Shown: in pieces, positions 10,371 to 63,044 of the stretch
Layout: every line of letters starts with the position of its first letter
How positions within the stretch are numbered: the stretch's first letter is position 1
Assembly (NCBI GenBank): GCA_964616985.1
Contig: CAZTVF010000002.1
Coordinates: forward strand, 25,114 to 89,113
Direction of reading: 5' to 3'
Origin: an uncultured Planctomycetaceae bacterium
Lineage (GTDB): Bacteria > Planctomycetota > Phycisphaerae > SM23-33
Length of the DNA: 64,000 nucleotides
Translations under genes and position numbers: made by a program
The notes under the pieces: generated by a model
What the model was told of the DNA's origin: nothing
Seen by the model: the letters and a program-made list of their open reading frames with translations, nothing else
Databases searched by the model: none

Positions 10371-10383
10371 GGTCGACTCCTTA

Positions 10384-47528: not shown

Positions 47529-47603
47529 ATTGGCCAGAGCGGACGCGTGAAGATGCCGATTGGAGAACCCGTCGCCCGCATGGTACCGCCGATGGCGGTC
47601 AAG

Positions 47604-49115
47604 TCAACCATGATGGTATGCGTCGGTTCGGAGTTGGGCCACGACCTGCGGGCACAAACCCTTCCATGCCTCGTAGCCGCCGTAGATCACGCGCACTTTC
47701 CGATGACCAGCCATCGCGAGCCGATACCCCGCCTCGAACGAGAAGATCCCGGTGGTGCACATGAAGATGACCTCGCGGTCGCGGGGGATCTCCCTGAAGT
47801 GCTTCTCCAGGCCGATGTGCGACCAGACCTTCGCCGACGGGATGCCTGGTGAGAGGATTCGCTCATACGACAACCGCAGATCGACGATGAAGGCGGCGGC
47901 AATGCGATCCCGCGTGAGGTGCTCCGGCGGCATCCAGGCGAGACCCTCGGGGTCGCCGCGGAGCACTCGCTGGAGCGCCCAGAGGAAGTATTTCACGTCG
48001 GCGGCCACCGTCGTCGTGCCCATGCTGATGCGGATCGAAGACAGGGCATCCTCGGCCGATAGCCCCATGCCCAGCAGCACGTGCGAGGGCTCGATGCGGT
48101 CGGCCGTGCAAGCCGAACCGATGGACACGGCGACCTGGTGACAATCGAGCCCGGCCAGGATGCTCAGCCCGCTGGCCCCGGGAAACGTGGCATTGACCGA
48201 GCCAGGCAACTGCCACGGCTCGGGGGCCTCGTTGATGCGGACCTGCGGGCACAGGCGGCGCATGCCGTCGATCATCATCTGCCGCAACCCTCGCAGCCGC
48301 TGCCGCTGCGTATCCATTCGCTCAGACGCCAAGGTCGCCGCGACGCCGAGGCCGACGATCTGATGCACCGCCTCGGTGCCCGTGCGCATCCGTCGCTCCT
48401 GGTCTCCGCCGGCGATCAGGGGCAGCCACTTGGCCCCGCCGCGCCAGTACAAGGCACCGGCGCCCTTGGGGCCGTTGATCTTGTGGGCAGTCAGCGTGAG
48501 GAACTCGCATCCCAGATCGTCGACGTTTGTCGGCAGTTTGCCGAACGTCTGCACGGCGTCGGTGTGCATCGGCACGTGGGAACGGCGGGCGATCTCGGCG
48601 ATCTCCTTCACCGGCTGGATGACCCCCGTCTCGTTGTTGGCGTGCATGACGGAGATCAGGACCGTGTCGGGCCCGATGGCCGAGGCGATGTCCTGGGGCC
48701 TCATGCGGCCGTCGGCGCCGGCGGGCACGTATGTCACGCGGGCGCCCTGTTTCTGGGCCTGCTCGCAGGCGCCCAACACCGAATCGTGTTCGATCCGCGT
48801 GGTGATGACGTGCCCGCCGCCGACCGCTTGAGGCGAATGAAGTGTGGACGCCGCCAGCACTCCCTTGATCACAGCGTTGTTGGCCTCCGTGCCGCCGGAG
48901 GTCAAGTAGACGTCATGCGCCTCGCAGCCCAGCACAGCCGCTACGGCGCGGCGGGCCTGCTCGACCGCGCCCCGTGCCGTACGGCCGGCAATGTGGAGCG
49001 AGGAGGGGTTGCCGTGAACCTTCCTGAGACACGCCGCCATCGCGCGGCGGACCTGCGGCGCCACGGGCGTCGTCGCGTTATGGTCCAGGTACGTTCGTCG
49101 TGGCCAGCGGATCAT
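47604..49115 (-). CDS. cysteine desulfurase (NifS/IscS class V aminotransferase) fused to a C-terminal rhodanese domain
   Basis: 'LDHNATTP', 'GNPSSLH', 'TSGGTEANN', 'HTDAVQ', 'LTAHKINGPKGAGAL' (PLP Lys), 'SIGSACTA' (catalytic Cys loop). A rhodanese follows with active-site loop 'VIFMCTTGIFS'. GGAG lies 7 nt before the ATG, which is 9 nt after the upstream stop. Confidence 0.85.
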   Translation of the reverse strand: MIRWPRRTYLDHNATTPVAPQVRRAMAACLRKVHGNPSSLHIAGRTARGAVEQARRAVAAVLGCEAHDVYLTSGGTEANNAVIKGVLAASTLHSPQAVGGGHVITTRIEHDSVLGACEQAQKQGARVTYVPAGADGRMRPQDIASAIGPDTVLISVMHANNETGVIQPVKEIAEIARRSHVPMHTDAVQTFGKLPTNVDDLGCEFLTLTAHKINGPKGAGALYWRGGAKWLPLIAGGDQERRMRTGTEAVHQIVGLGVAATLASERMDTQRQRLRGLRQMMIDGMRRLCPQVRINEAPEPWQLPGSVNATFPGASGLSILAGLDCHQVAVSIGSACTADRIEPSHVLLGMGLSAEDALSSIRISMGTTTVAADVKYFLWALQRVLRGDPEGLAWMPPEHLTRDRIAAAFIVDLRLSYERILSPGIPSAKVWSHIGLEKHFREIPRDREVIFMCTTGIFSFEAGYRLAMAGHRKVRVIYGGYEAWKGLCPQVVAQLRTDAYHHG

Positions 49116-49124
49116 GTGCGGCTC

Positions 49125-49751
49125 CTAGAAGACACCTGGGATGAAACGGTATCGGACCTTCGTCATGTATTCTCGGTATTCGGGAAAGCGGCAGAGGAAC
49201 CGTTCTTCGAGCACCGCCCGGTAGACATAGCAGGCGGTGGCGAAGGCCAGCATCGCCGCATTCCACAGGTACGGCAGGAACAGCAGCATGCCCACCTTCC
49301 AGAGGATGTCCGTCAGGTACATCGGGTGGCGCACGATCGAGTACATCCAGTCGGTCGTGATCTTCCGGGCTGCGATCAAGATGCCGAAGCTCCTGCCGAG
49401 GTTCAGCAGCGCCCCCGTGCCCAGCACCACGGCCAGGCCGATCACCGCCTGCGAGCACGTCCGCAGGATCGGGTCCTCGGTGGGTCTGCCGCCAAAGGCC
49501 AGGCCCGAATAGAACGCCGCCAGCGCCACGGCTTGGTGAAAGAGATTCGTGTCGACGGCGACGTGGGGGCGACGCACGAGGAAGATCACCAGCCAGATCA
49601 CGTTGTGGATGAGAAACGCGATCTGGACGAAGTTCAGCAGTTCGCCATCTCGCCAGCGGCACCACGTGTACCATGCGATCCACGCGCCGATGGACAGGAA
49701 TGCGCCCAGGTTAATCAGGAGGTGCTTGTGCCTGTTGATGAAGTCGTTCAT
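49125..49751 (-). CDS. ICMT/PEMT-family integral membrane methyltransferase
   Basis: Multi-TM protein with 'TDWMYSIVRHPMYL' and 'VLEERFL...FPEYREYMTKVRYRFIPGVF' signatures. ATG 49751 forms an ATGA overlap with the upstream stop. Confidence 0.75.
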   Translation of the reverse strand: MNDFINRHKHLLINLGAFLSIGAWIAWYTWCRWRDGELLNFVQIAFLIHNVIWLVIFLVRRPHVAVDTNLFHQAVALAAFYSGLAFGGRPTEDPILRTCSQAVIGLAVVLGTGALLNLGRSFGILIAARKITTDWMYSIVRHPMYLTDILWKVGMLLFLPYLWNAAMLAFATACYVYRAVLEERFLCRFPEYREYMTKVRYRFIPGVF

Positions 49752-51121
49752 CGCCTTCCCCCCATCACGTTGTGGCGGCAGGCGGGCGCGAGCCTGCCGT
49801 CGGCCTGCGGGTAGGCGTTGCAGCACCGGCGGAGGCGGGCGAGATCAAACGTATCGGCGTCCTGGAATGCGTGGATGAAGACCGACTTGATCCTTCGTTC
49901 GGCCGTGGCGAAGGTCTTGCGGGCGTCGAAGCACGCACAGTTCATCTCGGCCAGGACATTGCGAAGGGTCGCCAACACGGCCTGTCCGTCGGGGGCGGCT
50001 CCCACGGGGCCGCTCCACAGATCGTACACCATGTCCTTGAGGCGGTCGTGCTCCTGTTCATCCAGGCCAAACACCGTGCGGTTACTGAGTGTATCCATCA
50101 GCCCATCGGCCTGCACGAGGCGGTTGACCGCCGCCCGGCCGCCGCCATCGAGCATCAGGAAATATGCCAGCGAGAAGCACAGCGGATGGCTGCACGGCAG
50201 CGGCGCAAAGTCTTCCGCCGCCACCTTGCCCGTCGCGGCCAGAAGGCGGATCACGTCGGGAATCGTCAGGCGGCTCGCGCGGCCGGTCATGGCGGCGCCC
50301 CGGCCGGCGAAGGCAAGCGGCTGGATCATCAAGCTCACCACGTGCGGCTGTGAGAAGAAGTAATCCAACGTGGGCGAGAGTTCTTGCTCGTTCACGCCGC
50401 CCGCAAGCGTCATCGTGAGCGAGGTGGCAACGCCAGCCGAGGCGAGCAGATCGAGTACCCGCCGCTTGTCGTCCAGCATCGGCCGGCCTCGCAGCGTTTG
50501 GCAGGCGGCGTCATCGAACCCGTCGAACTGAAGCGAGATCACGACGTTTCGTTCCGCCAGCGCCGGCAGCAATTCGCGGTCGCGCAGCAGCGCCAGCCCG
50601 TTGGTCGAGATGCTCGTGCGGACAATCTCCGGCCGCTTGGCCGCCTCGTCCACCAGTCTCAGCAGGTGCGGGTGCATCAGCGGTTCCCCGCCGGACAGTG
50701 CGAGGATGTCCACCTGTCGTTCGGCCCGCAGCAGGCCGTCGAGCACACGGCGGAAAACCTCGACAGGCATATCCCAATCGCCGCCGGCCTGCGCGATGCA
50801 GATGGGGCAGGCCAGGTCGCATCGCCCCGTCACTTCGACGATGGGCATGCATAGATGCTGCTCGTGGCGCGTGCACATGCCGCAGCCATCGGGGCAGGGA
50901 GCCTTGGCATCGCCGGCGAATTTCAGGGGGGTCCACGCGGGCTTCACGAACCGCTGCGCCCGCAGGTACTGCTGCACGTCGGCATAGACGTACGTTCGCT
51001 GGCGGCCATGATCGGGGCAGAACTTGTCGAAGTAAACCTTGCCGTCGTCGGTCACCACCTTGGCCGGGACGATCTGCCGACAGACGCCGCACACGGATTG
51101 TGTCATGCCCAGCGTGTTCAT
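49748..51121 (-). CDS. radical-SAM enzyme with N-terminal Cys4/zinc-ribbon and extra Cys cluster (MJ0619/COG1964-like architecture)
   Basis: 'CGVCRQIV...KFCPDHG', 'CPDGCGMCTRHEQHLC', then the radical-SAM 'GRCDLACPIC' and 'LSGGEPL'. ATG 51121 forms an ATGA overlap with the upstream stop. Confidence 0.8.
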   Translation of the reverse strand: MNTLGMTQSVCGVCRQIVPAKVVTDDGKVYFDKFCPDHGRQRTYVYADVQQYLRAQRFVKPAWTPLKFAGDAKAPCPDGCGMCTRHEQHLCMPIVEVTGRCDLACPICIAQAGGDWDMPVEVFRRVLDGLLRAERQVDILALSGGEPLMHPHLLRLVDEAAKRPEIVRTSISTNGLALLRDRELLPALAERNVVISLQFDGFDDAACQTLRGRPMLDDKRRVLDLLASAGVATSLTMTLAGGVNEQELSPTLDYFFSQPHVVSLMIQPLAFAGRGAAMTGRASRLTIPDVIRLLAATGKVAAEDFAPLPCSHPLCFSLAYFLMLDGGGRAAVNRLVQADGLMDTLSNRTVFGLDEQEHDRLKDMVYDLWSGPVGAAPDGQAVLATLRNVLAEMNCACFDARKTFATAERRIKSVFIHAFQDADTFDLARLRRCCNAYPQADGRLAPACRHNVMGGRR

Positions 51122-52146
51122 GTTCGCGGCCTCACGGAGGTGAAGAACTCGCGGAACTGCCTCCAGCGAGGCGGCTTGTGCATGCATTCGGCAAACCCGC
51201 GGCAGCTGGTCCAGCACTGGGCGCAGGGCCGTGCGCGCTGCACACCCAGCAGGCGGTCGCGCAGGCCCGTCACGTCGTCGGACAGGATGTTGCCCACGGG
51301 CTCATCCAGCGTTTCGGTGCAACGGGCGACGTTGCCGTGGTTGTCGATGTTCATCAACAGGCGGCCGGTCTGGCAGTCGCCGATCCCGCCGACGGCGATC
51401 GCCCGGTCGAACTGTTCGATGTAGCTCGTGAGGGTGATGAACTCGGGATACTTCCGTTTGAGCCCCAGCAGGTGCTCCGTCACGCGGTCACTGGGCAGGC
51501 GCGGGCTCTTGGTGCCGCGGTTCCAGGAGTACAGGTTGACCATGTAGGTCACGCCGATCTGGCGGGCCAGTTGAATCAGCGGTTCGACATCCTGGAGGTT
51601 ATCGTCCATCAGCACGCTGATCATGTGAACCCGGTTTCGCTTGTCGGGCCGGTTCTTGTGCAGAAGTTCCAGTGCGCGCACGGCGCGGTCCCACGCGCCC
51701 ACGCGGCCGCGCTGGGCATCGTGGCGGGCGGGGTCGACATAGTCGACGGACACCGAGATCTCCTGCAGCCCGGCCTTGAGCAGGTCCTTGGCCTTGGCCT
51801 CGTCGACGAACCAGCCGTTGGTGATGAGGATGGGGAAGTGGTTCGCCTGGTTGAGGATTGTGATGATCTCGGGCAGGTCGTCACGGATCAGCGGCTCGCC
51901 CCCGGCCAGCGAAATGATCAACGTGCCCAGGCGGTTGAGCCTCGTGCCGATGACGCGGAAATCGTCCAGCGAGAGCTCGTCGGTGTTCTGGTAGTCCGGC
52001 TTCCAGAAGTCGCAGATCTGGCACTGGAAGTTGCAGCGATACGTGACCTGGAGATTGCAGTGCAGCATCCGCTTGAGCAGGAGGTTTCGCGCCAGCCGCA
52101 GGCAGCGATACTGGTAATGCACTTCCTTTCGCACAGCCGTCAGCAT
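51118..52146 (-). CDS. radical-SAM enzyme with SPASM-like C-terminal Cys motifs
   Basis: 'LQVTYRCNFQCQIC', 'LAGGEPL'. C-terminal 'GDCQTGRLLMNIDNHGNVARC' fits C-x12-G-x4-C, followed by 'CAQCWTSCRGFAEC'. ATG 52146 overlaps the upstream stop by 7 nt. Confidence 0.8.
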   Translation of the reverse strand: MLTAVRKEVHYQYRCLRLARNLLLKRMLHCNLQVTYRCNFQCQICDFWKPDYQNTDELSLDDFRVIGTRLNRLGTLIISLAGGEPLIRDDLPEIITILNQANHFPILITNGWFVDEAKAKDLLKAGLQEISVSVDYVDPARHDAQRGRVGAWDRAVRALELLHKNRPDKRNRVHMISVLMDDNLQDVEPLIQLARQIGVTYMVNLYSWNRGTKSPRLPSDRVTEHLLGLKRKYPEFITLTSYIEQFDRAIAVGGIGDCQTGRLLMNIDNHGNVARCTETLDEPVGNILSDDVTGLRDRLLGVQRARPCAQCWTSCRGFAECMHKPPRWRQFREFFTSVRPRT

Positions 52147-53153
52147 GATCGTCTCCAGTCTTTCAGTTCGCCCAGGGCCGCCAGCGGATGACGCTGAAGG
52201 AGCGACAGGGCCATGTGACAGAAGATGCGGCACTGGCCGCGGCAACCCGGCATCATCGTCCGCTCGATTCGTTCGGGCGTGAGCAGATCTCGATACCGCC
52301 CGGCCGGCGGGATAGCCAACTGCTCCTGCGGCCGCTCCAGGCAGGGCAGGTTGACCGTGCCGTCGGGGCGGATAGTGGGCATCAACAGCGGATGGCACGC
52401 GTAGTCGCTCCCGTCGCGGATGCCCCGCAGGTACCGGCCGATGCCGAGCACCGCGGCCCCGGCCACCTTGGCGGCAATCGCCTCATCGACGAGCGATCGA
52501 AACTCCTCGTTGTCCCGCAGGGCCGGATGCACTGCCGTGCCGACGATTTGCGGCGACAGTTGAAACCCCAGCTTGTGTCGCACCGCCAGGCGAAGCACGT
52601 CGCGGACATCCGACAGGTTGTCCGGCATGGCCACGGCCGACAGCGCGATCTGCGCGGAATAGTGCGATCGGTTTTCGATGACCCAGGCAAGCGAGGCGAG
52701 AGTATCCGCCGCGGCGGCAGCATCGCCGCCGATGAGGGCGGCCAGGCGGTCGGGGTCCAGAGAATCGATGCTGAGCACAAGCACGTCCGAAAGCCGCATG
52801 AGCTGGGGCCTTTGGGGTAGGTGCGGGCCCTTGGTGTTCAGCACCGTGCGGAAGCCGACGCCACGGGCACAGGTCAGCAGATCCTCCAGGTCCGCGCGGA
52901 GCAGCGGCTCGCCGCCGGTGAAGTCCAGCGTATCGCCATCGCGCCGCAATATGCGGATGAGGGCCTTCGCCTCCGCCGTAGTCAATTCCGCGACAGCATC
53001 TTCCTTGAACGGCCTGCCGCGGCCGTCGCTGCAGTGCCGGCAAGCCAGAGGGCAGCGGTGCGTGACATAGTAGGAGAACAGCAGCGGCCGCGTTGGCGGA
53101 CGGCCCATCGCGATCGCCGAGAGGTTCCGGACGTAGTTCACCACAAAGCCCAT
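52140..53153 (-). CDS. radical-SAM enzyme with SPASM/twitch-like C-terminal Cys motifs
   Basis: 'YYVTHRCPLACRHC', 'FTGGEPL'. C-terminal 'YACHPLLMPTIRPDGTVNLPC' and 'PGCRGQCRIFC'. ATG 53153 follows AGGAGG and shares 1 nt with the upstream TGA (TGATG). Confidence 0.8.
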   Translation of the reverse strand: MGFVVNYVRNLSAIAMGRPPTRPLLFSYYVTHRCPLACRHCSDGRGRPFKEDAVAELTTAEAKALIRILRRDGDTLDFTGGEPLLRADLEDLLTCARGVGFRTVLNTKGPHLPQRPQLMRLSDVLVLSIDSLDPDRLAALIGGDAAAAADTLASLAWVIENRSHYSAQIALSAVAMPDNLSDVRDVLRLAVRHKLGFQLSPQIVGTAVHPALRDNEEFRSLVDEAIAAKVAGAAVLGIGRYLRGIRDGSDYACHPLLMPTIRPDGTVNLPCLERPQEQLAIPPAGRYRDLLTPERIERTMMPGCRGQCRIFCHMALSLLQRHPLAALGELKDWRRSC

Positions 53154-53722
53154 CAGGCCTTGCCCTCCTTGGGCCCAAGGGGCCTGGCCGGCACGCCGCC
53201 CACGGTCGCATGGTCGGCCACGTCGCTCACGACGACGCTGCCCAGGCCGGTGGTGACGCCCTCGCCGACCGTCACGCCGCATCGCACGATCGACCACGCC
53301 CCAACCACGGAGCCCTTGCCGATCTGCACGCGACCCAGGCGAAAAAACCCGGCGGTGTATTCGTGCGTCAGCAGCCGGCAGCCGATGCCCAGGAAGCAGC
53401 CGTCCTGCAGTTCGATGAGTTGCGGGTAGAACGCGTCGATGAACACGCCCGGGGCGATGTAGACGCCCTTGCCGATCCGCACGCCCATCCGCCGGTACAG
53501 CCAAACCTTCGCGTGCGACCACGGCAGGCGGCTGACCAAGTACATGATCGCGAATCGCAGGTTGAACGTCAGGTCGATCCAGACCGTGGGGAACAGGATC
53601 TTGCACACGCCGTAGTTCTCGTGGCGATGCAGAACGAACGGGCGGGCCCTGTCGCCGGCCCACCAGTCGGCATAGGCCTGCCGCTCTGTTCTGAGTTGCT
53701 GCTGGTCCTGTTCACTCAACAT
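53153..53722 (-). CDS. hexapeptide-repeat (LbH) acyl/acetyltransferase with a hydrophobic N-terminal segment
   Basis: 'GVRIGKGVYIAPGVFID...IELQDGCFLGIGCRLL...VQIGKGSVVGAWSIVRCGVTVGEGVTTGLGSVVVSDV...VGGVPARPL'. The start overlaps the upstream stop by 11 nt. Confidence 0.8.
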   Translation of the reverse strand: MLSEQDQQQLRTERQAYADWWAGDRARPFVLHRHENYGVCKILFPTVWIDLTFNLRFAIMYLVSRLPWSHAKVWLYRRMGVRIGKGVYIAPGVFIDAFYPQLIELQDGCFLGIGCRLLTHEYTAGFFRLGRVQIGKGSVVGAWSIVRCGVTVGEGVTTGLGSVVVSDVADHATVGGVPARPLGPKEGKA

Positions 53723-55127
53723 AGAATCGCTCGTCCTGCATGCGGTAGAAGAGGTTGTAGGTGCACGCCGGCACCAGTCGTCCCGGCTGGCAGGGAACCT
53801 GATCGGGGCACATCATGGCGCGGGAACAATCGAAGGTGCCTTCATCCATGTGCGAATGAACGTACACCGTCCGGACGCACGACTCGGCCGCCCGGTGCCG
53901 CTCGAACACGCCCAGCGTGCGGTCCGCGGGGTACAGTTTCTCCAACACGCTGCGCAGAACCTGCAGGTGCTCGGTGCTTCCCTTGGCATACAGGTCGTTG
54001 ATCGCGTCGGTGAAGAATTCCTGCCCGCCCTGCGGCCGCAGCAGGTAGGAATCGCCCAGCAACTCCGTCAGCCGCTCGCGCGGTCCCAGCCTCGCCAGCG
54101 GCAGCATGCCCGACGGCGTCTTGAGGGCATAGCACAGCAGATAGCACAGCGGATGCGCCGAGGGGCGGGTGAGGAAATCATCGAATGCCAGTTCGCCATT
54201 CGTCTGCTCACAGACGATGCGGGCGGCCTCGTCCACGGGAATGTGGTCGGCGCGGGGAAAGCGCCCTCCGCCCTGGCCTGTGTAGGTCATGGTCTGCACG
54301 GTCAGGCTCCCGATGGCATCGTTCTGTCGCATCAGCGACCACAGGGGGGCGATGGCGGATTCGTTCACGCCGCGCACCATCACGTTCAGCAGCGTCATCC
54401 GCACGCCGGCCGCCGTGAGGTTGTCGATCGCCTTGAGCTTCGTCGCCACCAGGTCCCGGCCATGAAGCTGAACGCTGACTGCGGGGTCGAATGTATTGAA
54501 CGACAGGATCACGCTGACCCCGCGCTGGGCGAGCTGGCGGCAGAGTTCCTTGTCCTGGGCCAGTCGCAGGCCGTTGGAGTTCATCGTGATGCGGCCGATC
54601 TCGTCGCGGCGGCAGCAGTCGAGGAGATCCAGGATCTGCGGGTGCAGCGTGGGCTCGCCGCCGGTGATGTTGATCAGGTCCACGCTGCCGGAGGACTCGA
54701 TGATCCAGTCCACCGTTCGCCGCATCTCGTCGATGGGCATGTGGTGCAGCCGGTCGGCGCGGTTGTAGGTGAAGCAGATCGGGCATCGCAACTCGCATGC
54801 GTTCGTCACCGAAAGCACGGGCAGTTGGCAGGGCGATGCATGAAACGCGCACGGGCCGCAATCATGCGGACATCCGCGGGAGGGCTGGCGGCTGTGCGGC
54901 AGCGGCGAACGGTCCGGCATCGCCTTGAGCACCGAAGACATGTACCAGTTCGGGTCCGCGGCGATGAGCGCTGGCGCGTTCTCGCACGTGGGGCAAAGTG
55001 CCTGCTGCCACACCTTCCACTGGCGGAAAAACACCCGCGCGGGCACGACCTGGCGGCACGTGCGGCACATGCCCCGCACGGTCGTGAAGTACGTATAGTC
55101 ACGTTCGGTCAGTCGCGCCATGGTCAC
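53712..55127 (-). CDS. radical-SAM enzyme with N-terminal Cys4/zinc-ribbon and extra Cys cluster (paralog type of 49748..51121)
   Basis: 'CRTCRQVV...LCPTCE', 'CPHDCGPCAFHASPC', radical-SAM 'TNACELRCPIC', 'ITGGEPT'. GTG 55127 forms a GTGA overlap with the upstream stop (alternative ATG at 55121). Confidence 0.8.
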   Translation of the reverse strand: MTMARLTERDYTYFTTVRGMCRTCRQVVPARVFFRQWKVWQQALCPTCENAPALIAADPNWYMSSVLKAMPDRSPLPHSRQPSRGCPHDCGPCAFHASPCQLPVLSVTNACELRCPICFTYNRADRLHHMPIDEMRRTVDWIIESSGSVDLINITGGEPTLHPQILDLLDCCRRDEIGRITMNSNGLRLAQDKELCRQLAQRGVSVILSFNTFDPAVSVQLHGRDLVATKLKAIDNLTAAGVRMTLLNVMVRGVNESAIAPLWSLMRQNDAIGSLTVQTMTYTGQGGGRFPRADHIPVDEAARIVCEQTNGELAFDDFLTRPSAHPLCYLLCYALKTPSGMLPLARLGPRERLTELLGDSYLLRPQGGQEFFTDAINDLYAKGSTEHLQVLRSVLEKLYPADRTLGVFERHRAAESCVRTVYVHSHMDEGTFDCSRAMMCPDQVPCQPGRLVPACTYNLFYRMQDERFYVE

Positions 55128-55585
55128 TCCCGCCCCTGTGCCAGCGGCCGGTGGATCTGCGAGAACAAGACCCTCAGGTCATCAGGATCGTGGAAGTCCG
55201 CCAGGGCCGCCGGAATGGCGAGGCACCCCTTGCCCGTGGCGATCGTTCGCCCCGAGGAGGAGGCTACCCCGTGGAACACGACGCCGTCGCTGCGATAACT
55301 CGCGACCTGGACATCCATATGAAGGCTTTGCCCGGGCCCCAGCGGCTCGTGAAAACGAACCTCTTCGAATCGGACCAGCAGGCCCATCTGCGTGAAGTCC
55401 GACGACAGGACGATCAGCCAATTGCCCAGTTGGAACAGGGCCTCCATCAACAGGCTTTCGGGCAGCGAAGCCTCGCGGCCCATCCGGCTGCGCAGGCAGT
55501 ATTCCTCGAGCGACAGGGCCTTGATGCCCGCGATGCTCCGCTGCATCTGCCAATCGAGGATCCTGTCCACCATGCGGAACTTCAT
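55124..55585 (-). CDS. hot-dog-fold protein (FabA/FabZ-like but lacking the canonical HFP His motif)
   Basis: 'MKFRMVDRILDW...IAGIKALSLEE...LPESLLMEALFQLGNWL...RFEEVRFHEPLGPGQSL'. It aligns in layout with the FabZ at 59733..60185, but 'DHFPxxPVMPG' is replaced by 'RMGREASLPES'. The ORF-track extension to 56236 is an out-of-frame overlap with the reductase gene. Confidence 0.65.
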   Translation of the reverse strand: MKFRMVDRILDWQMQRSIAGIKALSLEEYCLRSRMGREASLPESLLMEALFQLGNWLIVLSSDFTQMGLLVRFEEVRFHEPLGPGQSLHMDVQVASYRSDGVVFHGVASSSGRTIATGKGCLAIPAALADFHDPDDLRVLFSQIHRPLAQGRE

Positions 55586-56319
55586 CAGATGCCCCCGTCG
55601 ACGAAGATCGACTGCGCGTTGATGTAGCTGCTGCGGCCGCTGGCCAGGAACGCCACCAGTTCGGCGACCTCGGCCGGCTCGCCCGCGCGAGACAGGCAGC
55701 AGAAGTCGTTGTACTTTTCCCGCTGGCGGGGCGGCACGTTCTCGCTGACTCCGCCGCTGAGCATGCCCGGCACGACGGCGTTGACGCGGATGTTGTACCG
55801 CCCCAGCTCGCGGGCAAGCGAAAGCGTGAAGCCCATCACGGCGCTCTTGGCGGTGGCGTAATGAACCGGAACCTCCAGCACGCGCATGCCCGCCAGCGAC
55901 CCCAGATTGACGATGTTGCCGCTCTTGCGGCGGATCATGCCGCGCGCGAATGCCTTGGTGGCCAGGAACATGCCTTTGACGTTCACGTCCATCACCAGGT
56001 CCCAGTCCTTCTCCTCGATCATGGCGAAGGGCATGACCTGCGTGGCGCCGGCGTTGTTGACCAGCACGTCGACGCGGCCCATGTCCTGCTCGATCGTCTG
56101 GGCCAGGGCCTGGCAGGCCGTGGCGTCCAGCACGTCCAGCGGATAGGCGCGAACCGTCCCGCCGGCGTCGAGGCACTGCTGCTGGAGCGCCTGGGCCCGG
56201 TCGGCATGCGAATGGTACGAGAATGCGACGCGGCAATGCTCGCGGACCAGCACGCGCACGATGGCTGAGCCCACGGCCCCGCTGCCGCCGGTCACAAAGG
56301 CAACCTTCCCCTCAAGCAT
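55585..56319 (-). CDS. 3-oxoacyl-ACP reductase-like SDR (FabG-like)
   Basis: 'GKVAFVTGGSGAVGSAI' (TGxxxGxG), 'NNAG', 'YATAKSAV' (YxxxK), 'PGMLSGG'. ATG 56319 overlaps the ACP stop by 8 nt. Confidence 0.85.
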   Translation of the reverse strand: MLEGKVAFVTGGSGAVGSAIVRVLVREHCRVAFSYHSHADRAQALQQQCLDAGGTVRAYPLDVLDATACQALAQTIEQDMGRVDVLVNNAGATQVMPFAMIEEKDWDLVMDVNVKGMFLATKAFARGMIRRKSGNIVNLGSLAGMRVLEVPVHYATAKSAVMGFTLSLARELGRYNIRVNAVVPGMLSGGVSENVPPRQREKYNDFCCLSRAGEPAEVAELVAFLASGRSSYINAQSIFVDGGI

Positions 56320-56725
56320 CGACGGCCTCCTGCGGCTTGGCCGCAAGCTTGCGCTGGATGAGATGCACGAACACCGCCACGTTGAGGACCGACGGCACCT
56401 CGATCTTCTTCATTCCCGGCCGCAGTGTCTCCGGCGGCACCTCGGGCAGGGCCTTGCGCAGCTCCGCCACGGCCAGCGAGGTCAGGCAGCCGTCGCGCTC
56501 ATACTCGCCGCTGGGCACCTGCCCGCTCGCCTGGCGTTCAAACTCGTCGGCCTCGATCGTGATGCCGAAGCTCTCCTCGATCAGGAAGCTCAGGTCGAGC
56601 AGGTCGATGGACTCGGCCCCCAGGTCCGCCATCAGGTTGCTCGTCATCGCCACCTGGTGGGCCTTGGCACCCGTGACCTCGCGGATCAGCGGCAAGAGCT
56701 TGTCAAATACCTCGGTCTCAGTCAT
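56312..56725 (-). CDS. acyl carrier protein with a ~60-aa C-terminal extension
   Basis: 'VFDKLLPLIREVTGAKAHQVAMTSNLMADLGAESIDLLDLSFLIEESFGITIEADEFE' has an ACP four-helix layout with the phosphopantetheine Ser in 'LGAESID'. A further ~60 residues follow (...EVPPETLRPGMKKIEVPSVLNVAVFVHLIQRKLAAK...). Confidence 0.75.
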   Translation of the reverse strand: MTETEVFDKLLPLIREVTGAKAHQVAMTSNLMADLGAESIDLLDLSFLIEESFGITIEADEFERQASGQVPSGEYERDGCLTSLAVAELRKALPEVPPETLRPGMKKIEVPSVLNVAVFVHLIQRKLAAKPQEAVDA

Positions 56726-56729
56726 GGAT

Positions 56730-57338
56730 TCACCTGTATTCCACAATGTGCTCAACGGACTTCCTTCGGGGCGGCGGTGTTGTCTCGGTCGCGTAGCCCA
56801 CGGCTACAAGGCACGTGGGCTCAAACCCGGCCGGCAGGTCCAGCGACTGCCAGACTTCACCTGCCAGCAGCGGGGCGGTCATGACGCACGCGCCGAGCCC
56901 AAGCACGTGGGCTGCCAGCAGCATGTTCTGCACGGCCATCGCGGTGCTGATCGCCTCGCTGCTGGCGCGTCGCGGGTCGGCGCCGACCAGGGACTTGCCG
57001 ATCGCGGGGCTCTTCTTGCTCATGGCCAGGACCACCACGGGGGCGGCCTCGAACACCGTCGCGAAATGCAGAAGCTCCTGCCCTTGAGCAGCCAGCAGGC
57101 CCTGTGTTCCCGCGAGGCTCTCGCCCAGGCCGTGGCGCACCTGCTGGGCCAGCTGGCGAATCTGGGCCGCATCGCGAAACACCAGGAACTTCCACCCCTG
57201 GCGGTTGTGGTTCGACGGCGCCCACCGGGCCGCCTCGATCAGCTTGTCGAGCATGGCCTGTTCGGGCCGGCGATCCGTGAACGCCCGCACCGAACGTCGC
57301 GAGCGAAGCACCTCGAAGAATGCCTCTTCCTGCGTCAC
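56730..57338 (-). CDS. nitroreductase-family (FMN) oxidoreductase
   Basis: 'LRSRRSVRAFTDRRPEQAMLDKLIEAARWAPSNHNRQGWKFLVF'. GTG 57338 is preceded by GGGAGG and forms a GTGA overlap with the KAS stop. The ORF-track extension to 57464 overlaps the KAS gene. Confidence 0.75.
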   Translation of the reverse strand: MTQEEAFFEVLRSRRSVRAFTDRRPEQAMLDKLIEAARWAPSNHNRQGWKFLVFRDAAQIRQLAQQVRHGLGESLAGTQGLLAAQGQELLHFATVFEAAPVVVLAMSKKSPAIGKSLVGADPRRASSEAISTAMAVQNMLLAAHVLGLGACVMTAPLLAGEVWQSLDLPAGFEPTCLVAVGYATETTPPPRRKSVEHIVEYR

Positions 57339-58591
57339 GAGCACCTCCCGAAGATCAGCGTGGCGTTCTGCCCGCCGAAACCGAATGAGTTCGACAACAC
57401 CGTGCGGCCCTCGAACGGCCGGGCGGTGAGCGGAACATAATCGAGGTCGCACTGGGGATCGCACGCGTGGAGGTTGATCGTGGGCGGCACGCGCCGGTGT
57501 CGAAGGGTCAGTGCTGCCGCAGCCGCCTCGACCGCGCCGCTGGCGGCAATCATGTGGCCGGTCATCGACTTCACCGCGTGCACCGGCACGCGGTACGCTC
57601 GCGGGCCCAGCACTTCCTTGATGGCCGCCGTCTCGACGGCGTCGTTCTTCACCGTGCCCGTCCCGTGGGCGCTGACGCAGTCGATCTGCTCCGGCGACAG
57701 GTTGGCATCAGCCAAGGCCATGGTCATGCTCTGCACCGCGCCCCTGCCGCTGGGCTCGGGGTCCGATACGCGGAAGCCGTCCATCGAGCAGCCGTAGCCG
57801 AGTACCTCCGCATACGGCGCGACGCCGCGGGCCAGCGCGTCATCGAGACGCTCGAGGACCATGAACGCGGCACCCTCGCCCAGGACCGTGCCTTTACGCG
57901 TGGCATCGAAAGGTCGGCACGCGAGATGCGGCGTGTCATTCTCGGCCGAGAGCACGCGGAGCAGGCCAAACCCGCCCAGGCCCAGCGGGTTGAGCATGCT
58001 ATCGATGGCACCGGCCAACGCAACTGTCGCCTCGCCGCGGCGAAGCAGGCGCAGCGCCTCGCCCACCGCCTGGGCGCCGGCGGCGCACGCGGCACAATTC
58101 GTGAACCGCCCGCCGAGGAAGCCGTAGCTTCCGCCAAGGATTTCCGCCGTTGTGTCCAGCGGCGTCTGCAGGAGCTTGCCCGCCAGCAAGGCCGGAAGCT
58201 GCGACGCAATCGCCTGCCCGATGTCGTCGGCCTGCGCAAATGCCGTCAAGTCCTCCAGGCACAGCATCTCCAGCCCGACGCCCACGTGCAGCGATGCGTC
58301 CTGCAAGGTGGCCTCGGCAAGGCCGCTGTCGCCGATAGCGTCACGGGCGGCCTCCAGGCCGAGCAGCACCTTGCGGTCGCGGCAGGGCGCCGCCTGCCCG
58401 AACGCCTGGATCACAGACGCCGCATCGAAGTCGTTCACCTGCCCACCGATCCGCACGGGGAATTCCGACGCGTCGAAGTGAGTGATGGGCCCCAGGCCGC
58501 AGCGCCCGCCAGAGAGTCCCCGCCAGAAGCCGTCGCGCCCGTTGCCCACGGGGCTCAGCACGCCAATGCCGGTGACGACGATCCGGATCAT
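57335..58591 (-). CDS. beta-ketoacyl-ACP synthase II-like (active KS)
   Basis: 'MIRIVVTGIGVLSPVG', active-site 'NCAACAAGAQA', 'VSAHGTGTVKND', 'VKSMTGHMIAASG', 'SNSFGFGGQNATLIF'. ATG 58591 forms an ATGA overlap. The ORF-track extension to 59584 is an Arg/Pro/Gly shadow over the CLF gene. Confidence 0.9.
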   Translation of the reverse strand: MIRIVVTGIGVLSPVGNGRDGFWRGLSGGRCGLGPITHFDASEFPVRIGGQVNDFDAASVIQAFGQAAPCRDRKVLLGLEAARDAIGDSGLAEATLQDASLHVGVGLEMLCLEDLTAFAQADDIGQAIASQLPALLAGKLLQTPLDTTAEILGGSYGFLGGRFTNCAACAAGAQAVGEALRLLRRGEATVALAGAIDSMLNPLGLGGFGLLRVLSAENDTPHLACRPFDATRKGTVLGEGAAFMVLERLDDALARGVAPYAEVLGYGCSMDGFRVSDPEPSGRGAVQSMTMALADANLSPEQIDCVSAHGTGTVKNDAVETAAIKEVLGPRAYRVPVHAVKSMTGHMIAASGAVEAAAAALTLRHRRVPPTINLHACDPQCDLDYVPLTARPFEGRTVLSNSFGFGGQNATLIFGRCS

Positions 58592-59718
58592 ACGCCCTCC
58601 AGCAGCAAAGCGCCTTGCTGGCTGCCGTGGCCAAAGCAGTGGGCCAGCACGTGTTTGCCCGCCCCTGCACCATGGGCCATCGTGGCGGCCAGCGCCACCT
58701 GGACGGCGGCGGCCGCGGCAAACAGGTTGCCCAGGTATCGCTTGGGATGCACTCGCCGGCCGACGAGCAGCGATGCCCGCGCGATCGCTTCTGTTTCCGC
58801 CTGGGCGATGAAACGGTCGCCATCGCCCGCCGGGACGAGATCCACTGCGCCGCCTGCCCCGATGTCGCCGATCACGTTGCGGAACGTCGCCGCTAGGTCT
58901 GCGGGCGTGGGGGCGGTTCGCATCACATGCCGGGCCACCCTGGCATATATTCGGGCGCCGCGCGCCCGTGCTTGCCGTTCCTCCTCCAGCACGAGGAAGG
59001 CGGCGCCCTCGCCGGGAATGGAGCCCTCGCCGTGCTGTGCCCACGAGCGGAACGCCCCGATCTGCTGCAGGCTGACGAAGGCGAATTCGTGCGTCCGCAC
59101 ATCGCTCCCGCCCACCAGCGCGCACGCAACGCGGCCCTCCTGGATTTCCCGCACCCCGGCGGCGATCGCCTGCACGCCTTGCCCTTCCCACGGTGTATAG
59201 ATGCCGTTGGGGCCGCGAATGTTCGCGAAGATCGAGACGAAGCAGATCGGCATGTTGGCCAGGATCTTGAACGATAGCACCGGCCGGACGCGCTTGAGCG
59301 CCACGCGGCCGAATTGGGCCAGGTCCAGCCCGCCTTGGGCGTCGGCTGAGTGCTTGACCAGCGAACTGACCTCCTCGGCCGCCATACCGGTCAGGCCGGT
59401 GGCGCCGAAAAGTGCGATGGCCTGGGACGGATACGTCTGGCCCGGCTGGAGGTCGGCGTCGGCTAACGCCAGGCGCGCCGCCGCCACGGCCAGTTGCGCG
59501 TCGCGACTCATGAGCCGCAGGGATTTGCCGTCTTCGACATATTGCTCGGGGTGAAACTCTGCGATCGGGGCGACGGACTTGCACAGCAGCGACGTCGTAT
59601 CGAACGCCGGCCGCCGCGAGGCCGACTCGCCCCGCGCGATCCGCTCCAGCACCGCCGCCGGCGTGGCGCCCAGCGGCGTCACCAGCCCCAGTCCCGTTAT
59701 GACCACCTTTTCGTACAT
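58588..59718 (-). CDS. ketosynthase-like protein lacking the catalytic triad (chain-length-factor / KS-beta-like)
   Basis: 'MYEKVVITGLGLVTPLG' gives a KS fold throughout. The Cys position reads 'IYTPWEGQGVQA' (C to E). No 'HGTGT' is present (the region reads 'LVPAGDGDRF'). 'KxxxGH' is replaced by 'KRYLGNLFAAAAA'. Confidence 0.8.
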   Translation of the reverse strand: MYEKVVITGLGLVTPLGATPAAVLERIARGESASRRPAFDTTSLLCKSVAPIAEFHPEQYVEDGKSLRLMSRDAQLAVAAARLALADADLQPGQTYPSQAIALFGATGLTGMAAEEVSSLVKHSADAQGGLDLAQFGRVALKRVRPVLSFKILANMPICFVSIFANIRGPNGIYTPWEGQGVQAIAAGVREIQEGRVACALVGGSDVRTHEFAFVSLQQIGAFRSWAQHGEGSIPGEGAAFLVLEEERQARARGARIYARVARHVMRTAPTPADLAATFRNVIGDIGAGGAVDLVPAGDGDRFIAQAETEAIARASLLVGRRVHPKRYLGNLFAAAAAVQVALAATMAHGAGAGKHVLAHCFGHGSQQGALLLEGV

Positions 59719-59732
59719 GCCGCCCTTCTCGC

Positions 59733-60185
59733 TTACGGCTGCATCCAGAGCTTCATCATCGTCTTTCGCTTCTGGGCCAACTGCGGATCGTCCACGTACA
59801 TGAACGCGAAGGCCATGCCGGAACTGACCACCGGTTCCCCGTCCCGCAGGGCCTGCACGGCCACCTTGCCGCCGTTTTCGTTCAGGGCCGTCACCTCGGT
59901 CCTGTACGTGAGCGTGTCGCCCGGCCGGACGAACTCGCGAAACTTCGTCCGCTCCAGCAGCGTCAGCACCGCCTTGGCATCCCTGGCGTATTTGTCCAGC
60001 AGGCTCGCCTCCAGCAGCAGGCCCGACACCTGCGCCATCCCCTCGATCATCAGCACGCCCGGCATGACGGGCCGACGCGGGAAGTGGTCGTCGAAGAAAT
60101 CCTCGCTCAAGGCGACGTTCTTGATCGCCTCTGCCGAGCGGCCCACCTCCCACCGCGTGATTCGGTCAATCAGAAAGAATCGCAT
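59733..60185 (-). CDS. 3-hydroxyacyl-ACP dehydratase, FabZ-type
   Basis: 'MRFFLIDRI...EDFFDDHFPRRPVMPGVLMIEGMAQVSG' is the canonical FabZ motif. GGAGGAGG lies 4 nt upstream of ATG 60185. Confidence 0.85.
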   Translation of the reverse strand: MRFFLIDRITRWEVGRSAEAIKNVALSEDFFDDHFPRRPVMPGVLMIEGMAQVSGLLLEASLLDKYARDAKAVLTLLERTKFREFVRPGDTLTYRTEVTALNENGGKVAVQALRDGEPVVSSGMAFAFMYVDDPQLAQKRKTMMKLWMQP

Positions 60186-60835
60186 TTGCCTCCTCCATGG
60201 CCTTGTTGCTGGCCGCTGGCGGCGAGGAATTGCCGCACGATTTCGTCCATCTCCCCCAGGTTGGTGGTGATCGCATATCCCTTGGCCCACAAGGGGGGAG
60301 CAATCTGGGCGAGACGCCTTCTGAGGGCATGTTCCGTGGTGGCGCGCACCCGTCGGGCGGCGAGCTCCGGCGAGTGGTTCGGCCAGGCCTCCACCACCAG
60401 GACCAGGTGGTCGGGCTGGATTCTCTTCTCGATCAGCTTCCAGCCGTGCTCGGCGGCCAAGTTCCCCAAGGCTTTCTCCAGATCCTTTCGGGCCTCGCGC
60501 TGGAGCACAGGCCGCAGGCCTTGCGTCGCCAGGACCAGGCCATACTGAACACGATGCAGGACGCCCTCGTCCGTCTTTGCGAATTCGTGGAGTTTGCGTT
60601 TGATGCGGCTGATAAGAGAGGGGCGGCCCAGGACGGTGATGGATCGCGGCTGATCCGGCAGCTTGGTGAGGTATCCCTTTCTTTCCAGGGCGGCCACGTG
60701 CCCTCGGACCGCGCTGACGTTGGTCAGCCCCACCGCCTCGCCGATCTCCCGCAGGCTGGGGGCATACCCGCGATGTTGCCCGAAGTCTGACACAAAGCTC
60801 AAGATGGCTTGCTGCCTCGGTGTCAACGGCCTCAT
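60170..60835 (-). CDS. transcription factor: LexA-type winged-helix DNA-binding domain fused to an IS200/Y1-transposase-like domain
   Basis: N-terminus 'MRPLTPRQQAILSFVSDFGQHRGYAPSLREIGEAVGLTNVSAVRGHVAALERKGYLTKL' matches the LexA DBD. The C-terminus 'YGLVLATQGLRPVL...HGWKLIEKRIQPDHLVLVVEAWPNHSPELAARRVRATTEHALRR...LWAKGYAITTNLG..EIVRQFL' follows the IS200 TnpA layout, with HUH degenerated to 'DHLVLV'. There is no S24 peptidase domain. The stop overlaps the FabZ start by 16 nt. Confidence 0.7.
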   Translation of the reverse strand: MRPLTPRQQAILSFVSDFGQHRGYAPSLREIGEAVGLTNVSAVRGHVAALERKGYLTKLPDQPRSITVLGRPSLISRIKRKLHEFAKTDEGVLHRVQYGLVLATQGLRPVLQREARKDLEKALGNLAAEHGWKLIEKRIQPDHLVLVVEAWPNHSPELAARRVRATTEHALRRRLAQIAPPLWAKGYAITTNLGEMDEIVRQFLAASGQQQGHGGGKCDSF

Positions 60836-60864
60836 ATGTCCACCTGATTAGTGCTGGTGCTAAT

Positions 60865-60892
60865 ACTATAGGTGCGCATACTAATGCGTCAA
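60865..60892 (-). promoter_or_regulatory. sigma70-like promoter of the lipid operon
   Basis: The minus strand reads TTGACG (60892-60887), a 16-nt spacer, then TATAGT (60870-60865). AGGTGGA lies 4-5 nt before ATG 60835. The element sits in the only AT-rich stretch of this region. Confidence 0.5.
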
Positions 60893-61090
60893 TATCGATG
60901 TATAAAATAAAAGAATGCCGCTCTGCCAGACGGGTCACCCGTGCGAATCCAGCCGGTTCTGCCCCCGATCAGATTGCCCCTGTACGGGTTAACCTGAAGG
61001 GCGTACATAGCGGCGAGCTATATGATAATCAGTACACCAGCAATTTACGGTCGTACAACCATGCAGGAGCATGCGGGAACAGAAGAGATG

Positions 61091-61117
61091 GTGACAGGAG
61101 TGCAGGCCTGCTATACT
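61091..61117 (+). promoter_or_regulatory. possible divergent promoter for the small ORF / efflux genes
   Basis: GTGACA (61091-61096), a 15-nt spacer, then TATACT (61112-61117). The spacer is short, so this is weak. Confidence 0.3.
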
Positions 61118-61125
61118 AATGCACT

Positions 61126-63043: not shown

Positions 63044-63044
63044 C

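Follow-up and report, generated by a model that had tools for sequence, protein, structure and literature searches.

To our knowledge, no catalysts other than radical enzymes of the Tes family join two inert lipid carbons. Bacterial homologues of these enzymes are the leading, untested candidates for the synthesis of branched tetraethers, lipids that serve as palaeoclimate proxies and have no known producers in anoxic waters. Here, an operon that ties two diverged Tes-like radical S-adenosylmethionine (SAM) enzymes to a fatty acid synthase (FAS)-like gene set is examined in a 64,000-nt window, the whole stretch of DNA analyzed, from contig CAZTVF010000002.1 of an uncultured Planctomycetaceae bacterium (GCA_964616985.1). 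The reading favored here, with slightly better than even confidence, is that a private FAS-like module feeds the Tes-like enzymes, which would carry out C-C-type skeleton chemistry on the acyl chain as part of one pathway. The bond formed on the chain could possibly also be C-S, and the product is probably a specialized or modified membrane lipid that has so far escaped description.

The archaeal enzyme GDGT-MAS couples two inert sp3 carbons of lipid tails via an intermediate joined to its C-terminal [4Fe-4S] cluster by a C-S bond, and a thiolated lipid is released if the enzyme stalls; its labile Met439 ligand is conserved in 1000 archaeal homologues (PMC9433317). Homologues of Tes and Gms in Acidobacteria and Planctomycetes are proposed for the synthesis of branched glycerol dialkyl and branched glycerol monoalkyl glycerol tetraethers (brGDGT and brGMGT) (PMC8941075, PMC11214058, PMC11868695). 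The published Tes/Gms surveys examined make no mention of a link to cassettes of a ketosynthase (KS) and its partner. Anammox candidate Cluster I, proposed for ladderane lipids, is reported to be exclusive to anammox bacteria (PMC10139942), and an anammox active/inactive FabF pair forms a heterodimer resembling a KS with its chain-length factor (bioRxiv 10.64898/2026.05.19.726425).

Coding on the minus strand of the window is unbroken from 60835 to 47604, with a clean frame switch at every gene boundary in a scan of GC content at third codon positions (GC3), and mapping of start codons at these switches gave fifteen genes, g1 to g15. Every one of the fourteen junctions listed in the original prediction was reproduced, namely a 16-nt overlap, a 14-nt gap, ATGA, GTGA, a 4-nt gap, an 8-nt overlap and TGATG from g1 to g8, and GTGA, an 11-nt overlap, TGATG, a 7-nt overlap, ATGA, ATGA and a 9-nt gap from g8 to g15 (the overlaps span 1-16 nt and the gaps 4-14 nt). 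The g2 start, on which the 16-nt g1/g2 overlap is based, has an N-terminus (MRFFLID) kept in 52 orthologues. Since sulfatase genes that share a strand elsewhere in the window lie 31, 45 and 45 nt apart, tight packing is a property of the g1-g15 unit; the base composition of the operon does not differ from that of the rest of the window. No convincing terminator was found within the g1-g15 unit when 46000-61800 was scanned, and no riboswitch, tRNA or other Rfam element was found across the whole 64-kb window. Fifteen genes had been given as the extent of the operon, and all fifteen stand, but a sixteenth at 47513-47070 belongs to it as well. The genes g1-g16 form one real operon, a tightly coupled unit that is best read as co-functional. 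Its genes and two candidate control sites are as follows.

60865..60892, minus strand: candidate promoter TTGACG-16-TATAGT, a sigma-70-like consensus match of 10/12 (the best in 46000-61800), 30 nt 5' of g1
60856-60868 and 60871-60883: candidate operator, tandem 13-mers GGTGC(T/G)(A/C)ATACTA forming direct repeat D1 with 15-bp spacing
60170..60835, minus strand: g1, regulator with a LexA-type winged-helix DNA-binding domain and an IS200/Y1-transposase-like domain (Pfam, NCBIfam)
59733..60185, minus strand: g2, FabZ-type 3-hydroxyacyl-acyl carrier protein (ACP) dehydratase, catalytic His and Glu invariant in 52 orthologues
58588..59718, minus strand: g3, catalytically dead KS-like (chain-length-factor-like) partner, only the KS N-domain detected by Pfam
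57335..58591, minus strand: g4, FabF-like ketosynthase predicted to be active from its residues (Cys in AACAAG, His in SAHGTGT, His in TGHMIAASG)
56730..57338, minus strand: g5, nitroreductase-fold flavin mononucleotide protein (Pfam, NCBIfam), present in 34/51 loci
56312..56725, minus strand: g6, dedicated ACP of 137 aa, phosphopantetheine Ser present (GAESID)
55585..56319, minus strand: g7, FabG-like ketoreductase of the short-chain dehydrogenase/reductase (SDR) type (Pfam adh_short)
55124..55585, minus strand: g8, second hot-dog (FabZ-like) protein, catalytic His absent in 33/33 orthologues, Glu kept
53712..55127, minus strand: g9 (Tes-A), large radical-SAM enzyme of the Tes/GDGT-MAS superfamily, four-Cys rubredoxin-like site, His at Met439 and Val at Tyr459
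53153..53722, minus strand: g10, hexapeptide-repeat acyl/acetyltransferase, nearest family heptaprenylglyceryl-phosphate O-acetyltransferase (80 vs 300 bits), 25 orthologues
52140..53153, minus strand: g11, small radical-SAM enzyme of 337 aa, CX3CX2C at residues 34-41, Cys-rich C-terminus, no known subfamily matched
51118..52146, minus strand: g12, small radical-SAM enzyme of 342 aa, CX3CX2C from residue 38, SPASM/twitch-like Cys-rich C-terminus, no known subfamily matched
49748..51121, minus strand: g13 (Tes-B), large radical-SAM enzyme of the Tes/GDGT-MAS superfamily, Zn_ribbon_HMPTM/rubredoxin CX2C..CX2H, His at Met439, Tyr459 kept
49125..49751, minus strand: g14, ICMT/PEMT-family integral-membrane methyltransferase, polytopic by hydropathy, orthologues in L001, L091, L106 and L107
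47604..49115, minus strand: g15, NifS/IscS-type cysteine desulfurase with rhodanese; pyridoxal phosphate Lys (AHK), desulfurase Cys (GSACT) and rhodanese Cys (MCTTG) present
47070..47513, minus strand: g16, small membrane protein of 147 aa from a conserved MKxLC start, with three hydrophobic stretches, of which the first could hold two helices

Domain calls were made by Pfam and NCBIfam profile searches of the operon proteins against curated cut-offs. The gene labels proposed earlier were all confirmed: the regulator (LexA_DNA_bind and Y1_Tnp), FabZ (FabA/FabZ), dead KS (KS N-domain only), KAS II (full KS), nitroreductase (Nitroreductase), ACP (PP-binding), ketoreductase (adh_short), hot-dog protein (FabA-like), radical-SAM enzymes (four Radical_SAM), acyltransferase (Hexapep), ICMT (ICMT/PEMT) and NifS-rhodanese (Aminotran_5 and Rhodanese). 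The same searches upheld the absences that had been claimed, detecting among the fifteen genes no enoyl reductase of the FabI, FabK, FabL or FabV types, malonyl transferase, thioesterase, cyclase, ammonia lyase, LolA or MMPL; FabD and FabH were likewise undetected among the operon proteins. None of the fifteen proteins g1-g15 reached an NCBIfam curated cut-off. Equivalog scores were 392.9 against a cut-off of 493.75 for FabF, 110.8 against 155.15 for FabZ, 210.8 against 297.75 for FabG (g7) and 33.9 against 70.45 for ACP. By these scores the FAS-like proteins are divergent paralogues, distinct from the housekeeping enzymes.

The top NCBIfam families for g9 and g13 were Tes and the related TrsS. 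Against the Tes model NF045702 (cut-off 450 bits) g9 scored 168.4 and g13 211.6, and against the TrsS model (cut-off 490) they scored 182 and 262, in each case below the cut-off and above their own Tes scores; the best NCBIfam match of g13 is the selenoprotein family TrsS, ahead of Tes. Pfam Zn_ribbon_HMPTM matched g13 with 58.6 bits and g9 with 21.7 bits, and g13 aligned end to end with the GDGT-MAS structure 7TOL (E=1.6e-48). Residues were surveyed in a MAFFT alignment of 37 Tes-A and 31 Tes-B orthologues, with columns set by a hand-transcribed 7TOL sequence. The three Cys of the radical-SAM motif CX3CX2C are invariant in all 37 Tes-A, all 31 Tes-B, g9 and g13, the N-terminal auxiliary cluster's Cys triad (also CX3CX2C) is invariant in the Tes-A and Tes-B orthologues, and three C-terminal Cys are conserved throughout the 37 and 31. 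The rubredoxin-like site reads CX2C..CX2H in g13 and CX2C..CX2C in g9, where the fourth Cys is shared by 25/37 Tes-A. The Met439 column holds His in 67/68 cluster-linked orthologues and likewise in g9 and g13, and the Tyr459 column holds Tyr in g13 and 31/31 Tes-B and Val in g9 and 33/37 Tes-A. The two proteins are 30% identical to each other, and in a neighbor-joining tree (no bootstrap) Tes-A and Tes-B form one lineage apart from stand-alone bacterial Tes homologues. Because of the family matches, the 7TOL alignment, the conserved sites and this lineage of their own, the names Tes-A and Tes-B are used for superfamily members outside the Tes equivalog. On sequence grounds, g9 and g13 are relatives of Tes/GDGT-MAS that keep the metal sites and form their own paired subfamilies, and by analogy they likely apply GDGT-MAS-type radical logic to inert lipid carbons.

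Stand-alone Tes homologues (L007-L035, L037-L042) occurred in Pirellulales, Gemmataceae, Solirubrobacterales, Tundrisphaera sp. TA3 and others; they were about 33-36% identical to g13 and had no FAS-like neighbors.

The cassette and the Tes-like genes are retained together across phyla. Among the candidates scored for the KS-like partner g3, 1028 were database homologues at E<=1e-10, and the top 120 of these were 49-73% identical over the full length. Scans of species-representative genomes gave 51 loci with a KS-like partner of at least 40% identity, all in metagenome-assembled genomes (MAGs), from Planctomycetota (Phycisphaerae, Pirellulales, Planctomycetales, Thermoguttaceae and Tepidisphaerales), many Verrucomicrobiota and Riflebacteria; two peptide-pattern scans with the partner gave only MAGs and no cultured carrier. 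The common gene order, shared by these three phyla and essentially that of the window, is FabZ, partner, KS (followed in Verrucomicrobiota by an extra FabG), flavoprotein, ACP, SDR, hot-dog protein, Tes-A, in some cases a hexapeptide transferase, and Tes-B. Two loci, L065 and L069, are collinear with g1-g13 gene for gene, and in one Lac Pavin MAG g1-g5 lie on contig L061 and g5-g16 on another, L001, at 50-86% identity. Among loci with enough sequence to be informative, Tes-A follows the FAS cassette in 28/36 and Tes-B in 25/33. Rearranged but recognizably complete sets, with homologues of g11, g12, ICMT, NifS and g16, occur in Aquicultor (Actinomycetota) and Elusimicrobiaceae MAGs (among L106-L108), and a partial set with g12 but lacking g11, g14, g15 and g16 occurs in a Fibrobacterota MAG (among L106-L108). 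Further rearranged loci with two or three Tes-like genes were found in Myxococcota (a Labilithrix MAG, L003, and a Byssovorax MAG, L004) and one Planctomycetota MAG (L036). Judged from these sequences, the cluster family is widespread across at least seven phyla of uncultured anaerobes.

The original prediction had named two findings that would tell against it: a syntenic cluster with an assigned product, and radical-SAM genes that are housekeeping maturases unrelated to the FAS-like genes. Full-text literature searches yielded no such cluster. Co-conservation with the FAS-like genes across phyla argues that the radical-SAM genes are not unrelated housekeeping maturases. Neither Tes-like genes joined to a KS/partner cassette nor a product for such a cluster were found in full-text literature searches or among curated families, with no formal MIBiG or cblaster comparison made.

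Several loci depart from the common layout. In L003, L004 and L036, the FAS-like genes are separated from the Tes-like, SDR and g12-like genes (which are divergent from them in L003), extra SDRs are present and identities are 25-48%. L054, a Phycisphaerales MAG chromosome (CP070723.1), has a complete FAS cassette behind the regulator, but of Tes-A it retains just a fragment that matches about 10%, and L086 and L094 are reduced clusters with only FabZ, partner and KS.

Within the FAS-like half, the Cys/His/His triad is missing from g3 in a pairwise alignment with g4, and the motif YTPWEG(Q/H/N)G at the Cys site is invariant in an alignment of 24 sequences. Since the catalytic His is kept in the 52 g2 orthologues and absent from the 33 g8 orthologues, g2 and g8 may make an active/inactive hot-dog pair, in which g8 is probably a non-catalytic or partner subunit of g2. 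Solved relatives of g5 include the FbiB C-terminal domain, albonoursin synthase, BluB and IYD, of which the first two are enzymes reducing or introducing C=C bonds, and g5 could act on the chain as an enoyl reductase or a desaturase. The ACP g6 has a C-terminal extension of about 60 aa with motifs conserved among 41 orthologues.

Of the two small radical-SAM enzymes, homologues of g11 are present in L064, L065, L067, L069, L091, L104, L106 and L107, and g12 is the best-conserved protein of the cluster, with 69-86% identity within Planctomycetota and 44-49% in Elusimicrobia and Aquicultor. Their NCBIfam scores against the AhbD model (cut-off 500) were only 50 and 81.5 bits, respectively. Gms, an AhbD-like SPASM radical-SAM enzyme, is defined by an N-terminal COG4001 lipid-binding domain of about 100 aa (bioRxiv 10.1101/2023.10.20.563219). 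Identification of g11 or g12 with this GMGT synthase was rejected, as CX3CX2C motifs at residues 34 and 38 leave no room for such an N-terminus; the COG4001 profile itself was not searched.

The operon is completed by one of two kinds of tail. In the window, L001, L091, L106 and L107, the tail consists of the ICMT-type methyltransferase, the NifS-rhodanese fusion and g16; orthologues of g15 occur in L001, L081, L088, L091, L106 and L107. The small protein g16 had no Pfam or NCBIfam match, and copies 46-70% identical to it lie beside the cluster in L001, L058, L059, L076, L088, L106 and L107. Because these copies persist beside the cluster in varying positions and orientations, g16 is considered functionally linked to it. 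In 22 other loci (L055-L058, L064, L065, L069-L071, L073-L075, L077-L079, L084, L087 and L098-L102; e.g. L056:17996-19300), Tes-B is directly followed by a rhodanese-membrane protein that has no homologue anywhere in the window. It consists of an N-terminal rhodanese domain, sometimes missing, and 6-7 transmembrane helices with a Cys-rich loop (C..LSLC..CIK....CGLRR). Its identification as TsoB was rejected, with NCBIfam returning only generic rhodanese. A rhodanese domain with a catalytic Cys is thus the feature common to both tails, supplied by g15 in one and by the rhodanese-membrane protein in the other.

The observed anatomy, family relationships, residue conservation and co-conservation support the proposal that a private elongation module works with several radical-SAM enzymes on the carbon skeleton of an acyl chain, and from them we infer the following catalytic steps. 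The g4 and g3 proteins would act as a KS/chain-length-factor pair, priming from malonyl-ACP and extending the chain on the long-tailed ACP g6, with malonyl loading borrowed from the housekeeping FabD. Each beta-keto group would be reduced by g7 and dehydrated by g2, which would probably pair with the His-less g8 in a heterodimer, and the flavoprotein g5 would either replace the missing enoyl reductase or set the pattern of unsaturation. Tes-A and Tes-B would each cleave SAM and abstract hydrogen from unactivated chain carbons, with the radical held on the C-terminal [4Fe-4S] cluster as in GDGT-MAS, and would form one or more C-C bonds by tail-to-tail coupling (giving a long dicarboxylic or membrane-spanning chain) or by ring closure. 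Where present, the small SPASM-type g11 and g12 may make further skeleton changes, and g15 may supply sulfur for the many Fe-S clusters. The g10, g14 and g16 proteins could finish the product or place it at the membrane, under the presumed control of g1.

Some observations weigh against this pathway. The labile Met439 ligand of the GDGT-MAS C-terminal cluster is replaced by His in g9 and g13, and Tyr459 is lost in Tes-A; for these two reasons the Tes-A/Tes-B reaction may differ from C-C coupling. Eight of the 36 informative loci have the FAS cassette without adjacent Tes genes, and every relative of the cluster is a MAG. Beyond the domain level the catalytic roles are predictions, and the radical-SAM enzymes may work either on chains bound to ACP or on membrane lipids already completed. 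The recurrent rhodanese fits sulfur incorporation at least as well as upkeep of Fe-S clusters.

The main rival is a reading that we consider unlikely, in which the Tes-like pair stops at the C-S stage and thiolates the private acyl chain in the manner of LipA on octanoyl. A desulfurase-rhodanese relay would replace the inserted sulfur, the ICMT enzyme would methylate a thiol or carboxylate, and the pathway would yield either a thio- or methylthio-lipid or else a cofactor resembling lipoate. It would account for the fact that, of the accessory features, only the catalytic-Cys rhodanese is shared by both layouts (as g15 in the window, L001, L091, L106 and L107; as the membrane protein in the 22 loci), for the altered cluster ligand of both paralogues and for the preference of g13 for TrsS over Tes, and it has a precedent in the S-C bond formed on the GDGT-MAS C-terminal cluster and the thiolated lipid released on stalling (PMC9433317). 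On the other hand, Pfam and NCBIfam detect no LipA, BioB or MiaB-type domain in the operon proteins, and four multi-cluster radical-SAM enzymes would alone justify a dedicated cysteine desulfurase. Moreover, the rhodanese-membrane protein has no known function, and the ICMT gene is found in only a minority of clusters.

The FAS-like half taken by itself recalls an aryl-polyene or other polyene pigment pathway, in which a conjugated polyenoyl-ACP would be made in the style of a reducing type II polyketide synthase (PKS) and the radical-SAM enzymes would only decorate it. A KS with a dead partner, a single ketoreductase, an active/His-less hot-dog pair, an own ACP and the lack of FabI, FabK, FabL and FabV reproduce the aryl-polyene/ishigamide-type layout, the g2 orthologues also match PF22818 (ApeI-like) in Pfam, and there are weak matches to the cispentacin AmcE and AmcF models. 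Such a product is nevertheless improbable given that no aryl-starter enzymes, ammonia lyase, LolA/MMPL export genes or glycosyltransferases were found in the operon or among the families conserved around 55 related loci. The nearest solved structure of g4 is an ordinary FabF (1e5m, 322 bits), ahead of the actinorhodin KS (258 bits) and Iga11 (207 bits), the conserved g5 could serve as an enoyl reductase, and the carriers come from dark, anoxic habitats.

Two unrelated modules could also happen to be adjacent, an extra FAS cassette on one side and Tes-type genes remodeling bulk membrane lipids on the other, for example by brGDGT-type coupling of ordinary iso-fatty acids. The eight loci with no Tes gene next to the cassette, the reduced L054, L086 and L094, and L091, which lacks the nitroreductase and ketoreductase genes, are in line with this, as is the frequency of stand-alone Tes homologues in Planctomycetota (PMC11868695). 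However, the hot-dog gene g8 and the Tes-A gene g9 overlap (GTGA) as the genes at other junctions do, the linkage is kept across at least seven phyla despite rearrangements, and the cluster-linked Tes-A and Tes-B are a lineage distinct from the stand-alone homologues, so that we give chance adjacency little credence.

A ladderane-type pathway homologous to anammox Cluster I is very improbable despite the shared general recipe (a private ACP, FabZ, active and inactive FabF, and radical-SAM), as the operon proteins include no B12-binding radical-SAM or phytoene-dehydrogenase-like enzyme, the amxFabZ entries (8AYD, 8AYC, 8AYB, 8AYI and 7QV0) score only 59-43 bits on g2 against 73 bits for ordinary FabZ, no amxACP chain (from 7QV0) is among the 59 ACP matches of g6, and the carriers are non-anammox while Cluster I is reported to be exclusive to anammox bacteria (PMC10139942).

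Returning to the favored pathway of a private FAS-like module feeding Tes-like enzymes, a tentative and on balance doubtful extension is that the operon encodes an unrecognized bacterial route to cross-linked lipids. In uncultured anaerobic Planctomycetota, Verrucomicrobiota and their allies, Tes-A and Tes-B would weld the chain made by the private FAS-like module into a tail-to-tail, membrane-spanning (brGDGT-like or overly branched GDGT-like), sulfur-bridged or cyclized product. The cluster could then be used as a genetic marker for one long-sought bacterial source of the orphan tetraethers and other orphan lipids of anoxic lakes, sediments and digesters, and Tes-family enzymes would work with substrates made on a carrier protein. 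The operon presents one Tes lineage as a fixed pair tied to its own FAS-type line, a sulfur-mobilizing enzyme and membrane finishing enzymes, and this expressible gene set of about 13.8 kb allows a direct test of bacterial Tes-like function. The dead KS partner with its YTPWEG motif offers a sequence marker for carriers in metagenomes. Should the product prove ordinary, the operon would still be a clean case of a reducing type II system in which a nitroreductase-fold protein replaces the enoyl reductase.

Upstream of the cassette, homologues of g1 lie 5' of FabZ in eight Planctomycetota loci at 46-66% identity. In its IS200-like domain the HUH motif (PDHLVLVV) has lost its second His and the catalytic Tyr is missing, and this part of g1 looks like a domesticated transposase domain. 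The regulator combining a LexA-type domain with a dead IS200/Y1 domain heads the cluster in Planctomycetota only (including L054, L059, L061, L065, L068 and L069). The tandem 13-mers 5' of g1 overlap the -10 region of the promoter-like site and are a possible operator for g1. Another motif near the promoter, CATTAGTAT, was rejected, its two occurrences not exceeding chance.

Genes on either side of the operon were assigned elsewhere. Directly 3' of g16, the open reading frame (ORF) g17 (46963-46244, minus strand) contains H..HD-like motifs (HNLQHLDE and FFHDAVY); it had no Pfam or NCBIfam match, is not kept beside the cluster elsewhere and was rejected as an operon member. Divergent from the cluster, 61574-64000 (plus strand) encodes a TolC-like outer-membrane factor followed by a membrane-fusion protein with the stretch HGDDDGHGHGH, truncated at the window end; these genes resemble a czcCBA-type metal-efflux operon and are unrelated to the lipid genes. 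The TolC-like gene (61574-63043) was rejected as an exporter of the cluster product, since the His-rich CzcB-like fusion protein next to it places it in a metal-efflux operon outside the cluster. An OEP/MacB pair follows the cluster in L056 and is not conserved among related loci.

Elsewhere in the window, a single minus-strand ORF of 7,177 codons (12702-34235) has a coding-type GC3 of 0.86 and contains many right-handed beta-helix/NosD repeats together with Malectin, Kre9_KNH Ig-like, Big_5 and DUF5123 domains. Its product is probably a giant secreted or surface protein that binds or degrades carbohydrate. A minus-strand sulfatase array occupies 2796-12018 and 36488-39655, with six Pfam-confirmed members (Sulfatase and SGSH_C) and two unscanned ORFs of similar size between them, and nearby are a GDSL lipase, a beta-lactamase-fold protein, a URO-D-like protein and a GH42-like protein. 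The predicted functions of the array and its neighbors fit a polysaccharide-degrading planctomycete.

Compared with archaeal Tes/GDGT-MAS (MJ0619; 7TOL; NF045702), g9 and g13 have the same full domain layout, with a rubredoxin-like site and a CX3CX2C cluster in the N-terminal part, a radical-SAM core and a Cys-ligated cluster at the C-terminus. They differ in scoring far below the equivalog cut-off (168 and 212 vs 450) and in the changed Met439 and, in Tes-A, Tyr459 positions. Tes-A and Tes-B are furthermore bacterial, always a diverged pair and housed in a FAS-like operon, whereas the archaeal enzyme acts on isoprenoid ether lipids. Stand-alone bacterial Tes genes and tes-gms clusters share the superfamily, phyla and anoxic habitats of Tes-A and Tes-B, and coupling of fatty-acid-derived tails has been proposed there. 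Stand-alone Tes homologues, however, are single genes of 27-32% mean identity without KS, ACP or other FAS-like neighbors, and have Thr or Gln at the Met439 column in place of His. Gms differs from g11 and g12 in the N-terminal domain that defines it.

The ladderane analogy offered in the original prediction survives as a generic recipe, alike in kind only, with a product pathway as unproven for Cluster I (amxACP, amxFabZ, amxFabF2, amxFabFmut, the phytoene-dehydrogenase-like enzyme and the B12-dependent radical-SAM enzyme) as for the window cluster. Homology to the ladderane genes was rejected, with the last two enzymes missing from the sixteen window proteins and no specific similarity to amxFabZ or amxACP. 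PDB entry 9s5h has two different FabF-like chains and may be the anammox heterodimer; it was not used, and the comparison with anammox proteins covers FabZ and ACP. The expectation of a product other than a ladderane, in a non-anammox context, agrees with the carriers, which all lie outside anammox bacteria, in non-anammox Planctomycetota (Phycisphaerae, Pirellulales and Thermoguttaceae), Verrucomicrobiota, Riflebacteria and others. By sequence, g9 and g13 have their more informative relatives in Tes/GDGT-MAS, and the KS/partner and dehydratase pairs have theirs in reducing type II systems of the aryl-polyene type.

The latter systems (ApeO/ApeC and ApeI/ApeP; ishigamide Iga10-16; cispentacin Amc) likewise have a KS/chain-length-factor-like pair, one ketoreductase, paired hot-dog proteins, an own ACP and no FabI-type reductase, with the caveat that g5 may act as a reductase in the window. 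In contrast to aryl-polyene clusters, genes for aryl starters, export and glycosyl or acyl transfer are absent from the window operon and the families conserved around the 55 related loci, and the window type has a nitroreductase-fold flavoprotein and up to four radical-SAM enzymes. The window KS is closer to FabF than to PKS ketosynthases, and the cispentacin Amc models were matched only well below their cut-offs. Housekeeping type II FAS has equivalog-level FabF, FabZ, FabG and AcpP together with FabD, FabH and FabI, whereas all four counterparts in the operon fall below the cut-offs and the other three are missing. Lipoyl and biotin synthase systems resemble the operon as functional analogies only, in combining an acyl chain made on ACP, radical-SAM enzymes with auxiliary clusters and dedicated sulfur mobilization; the window enzymes have no sequence relation to LipA, BioB or MiaB, and no lipoyl or biotinyl carrier domain is present. 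The cluster joins features of known kinds of system and has a real chance of encoding unrecognized lipid chemistry.

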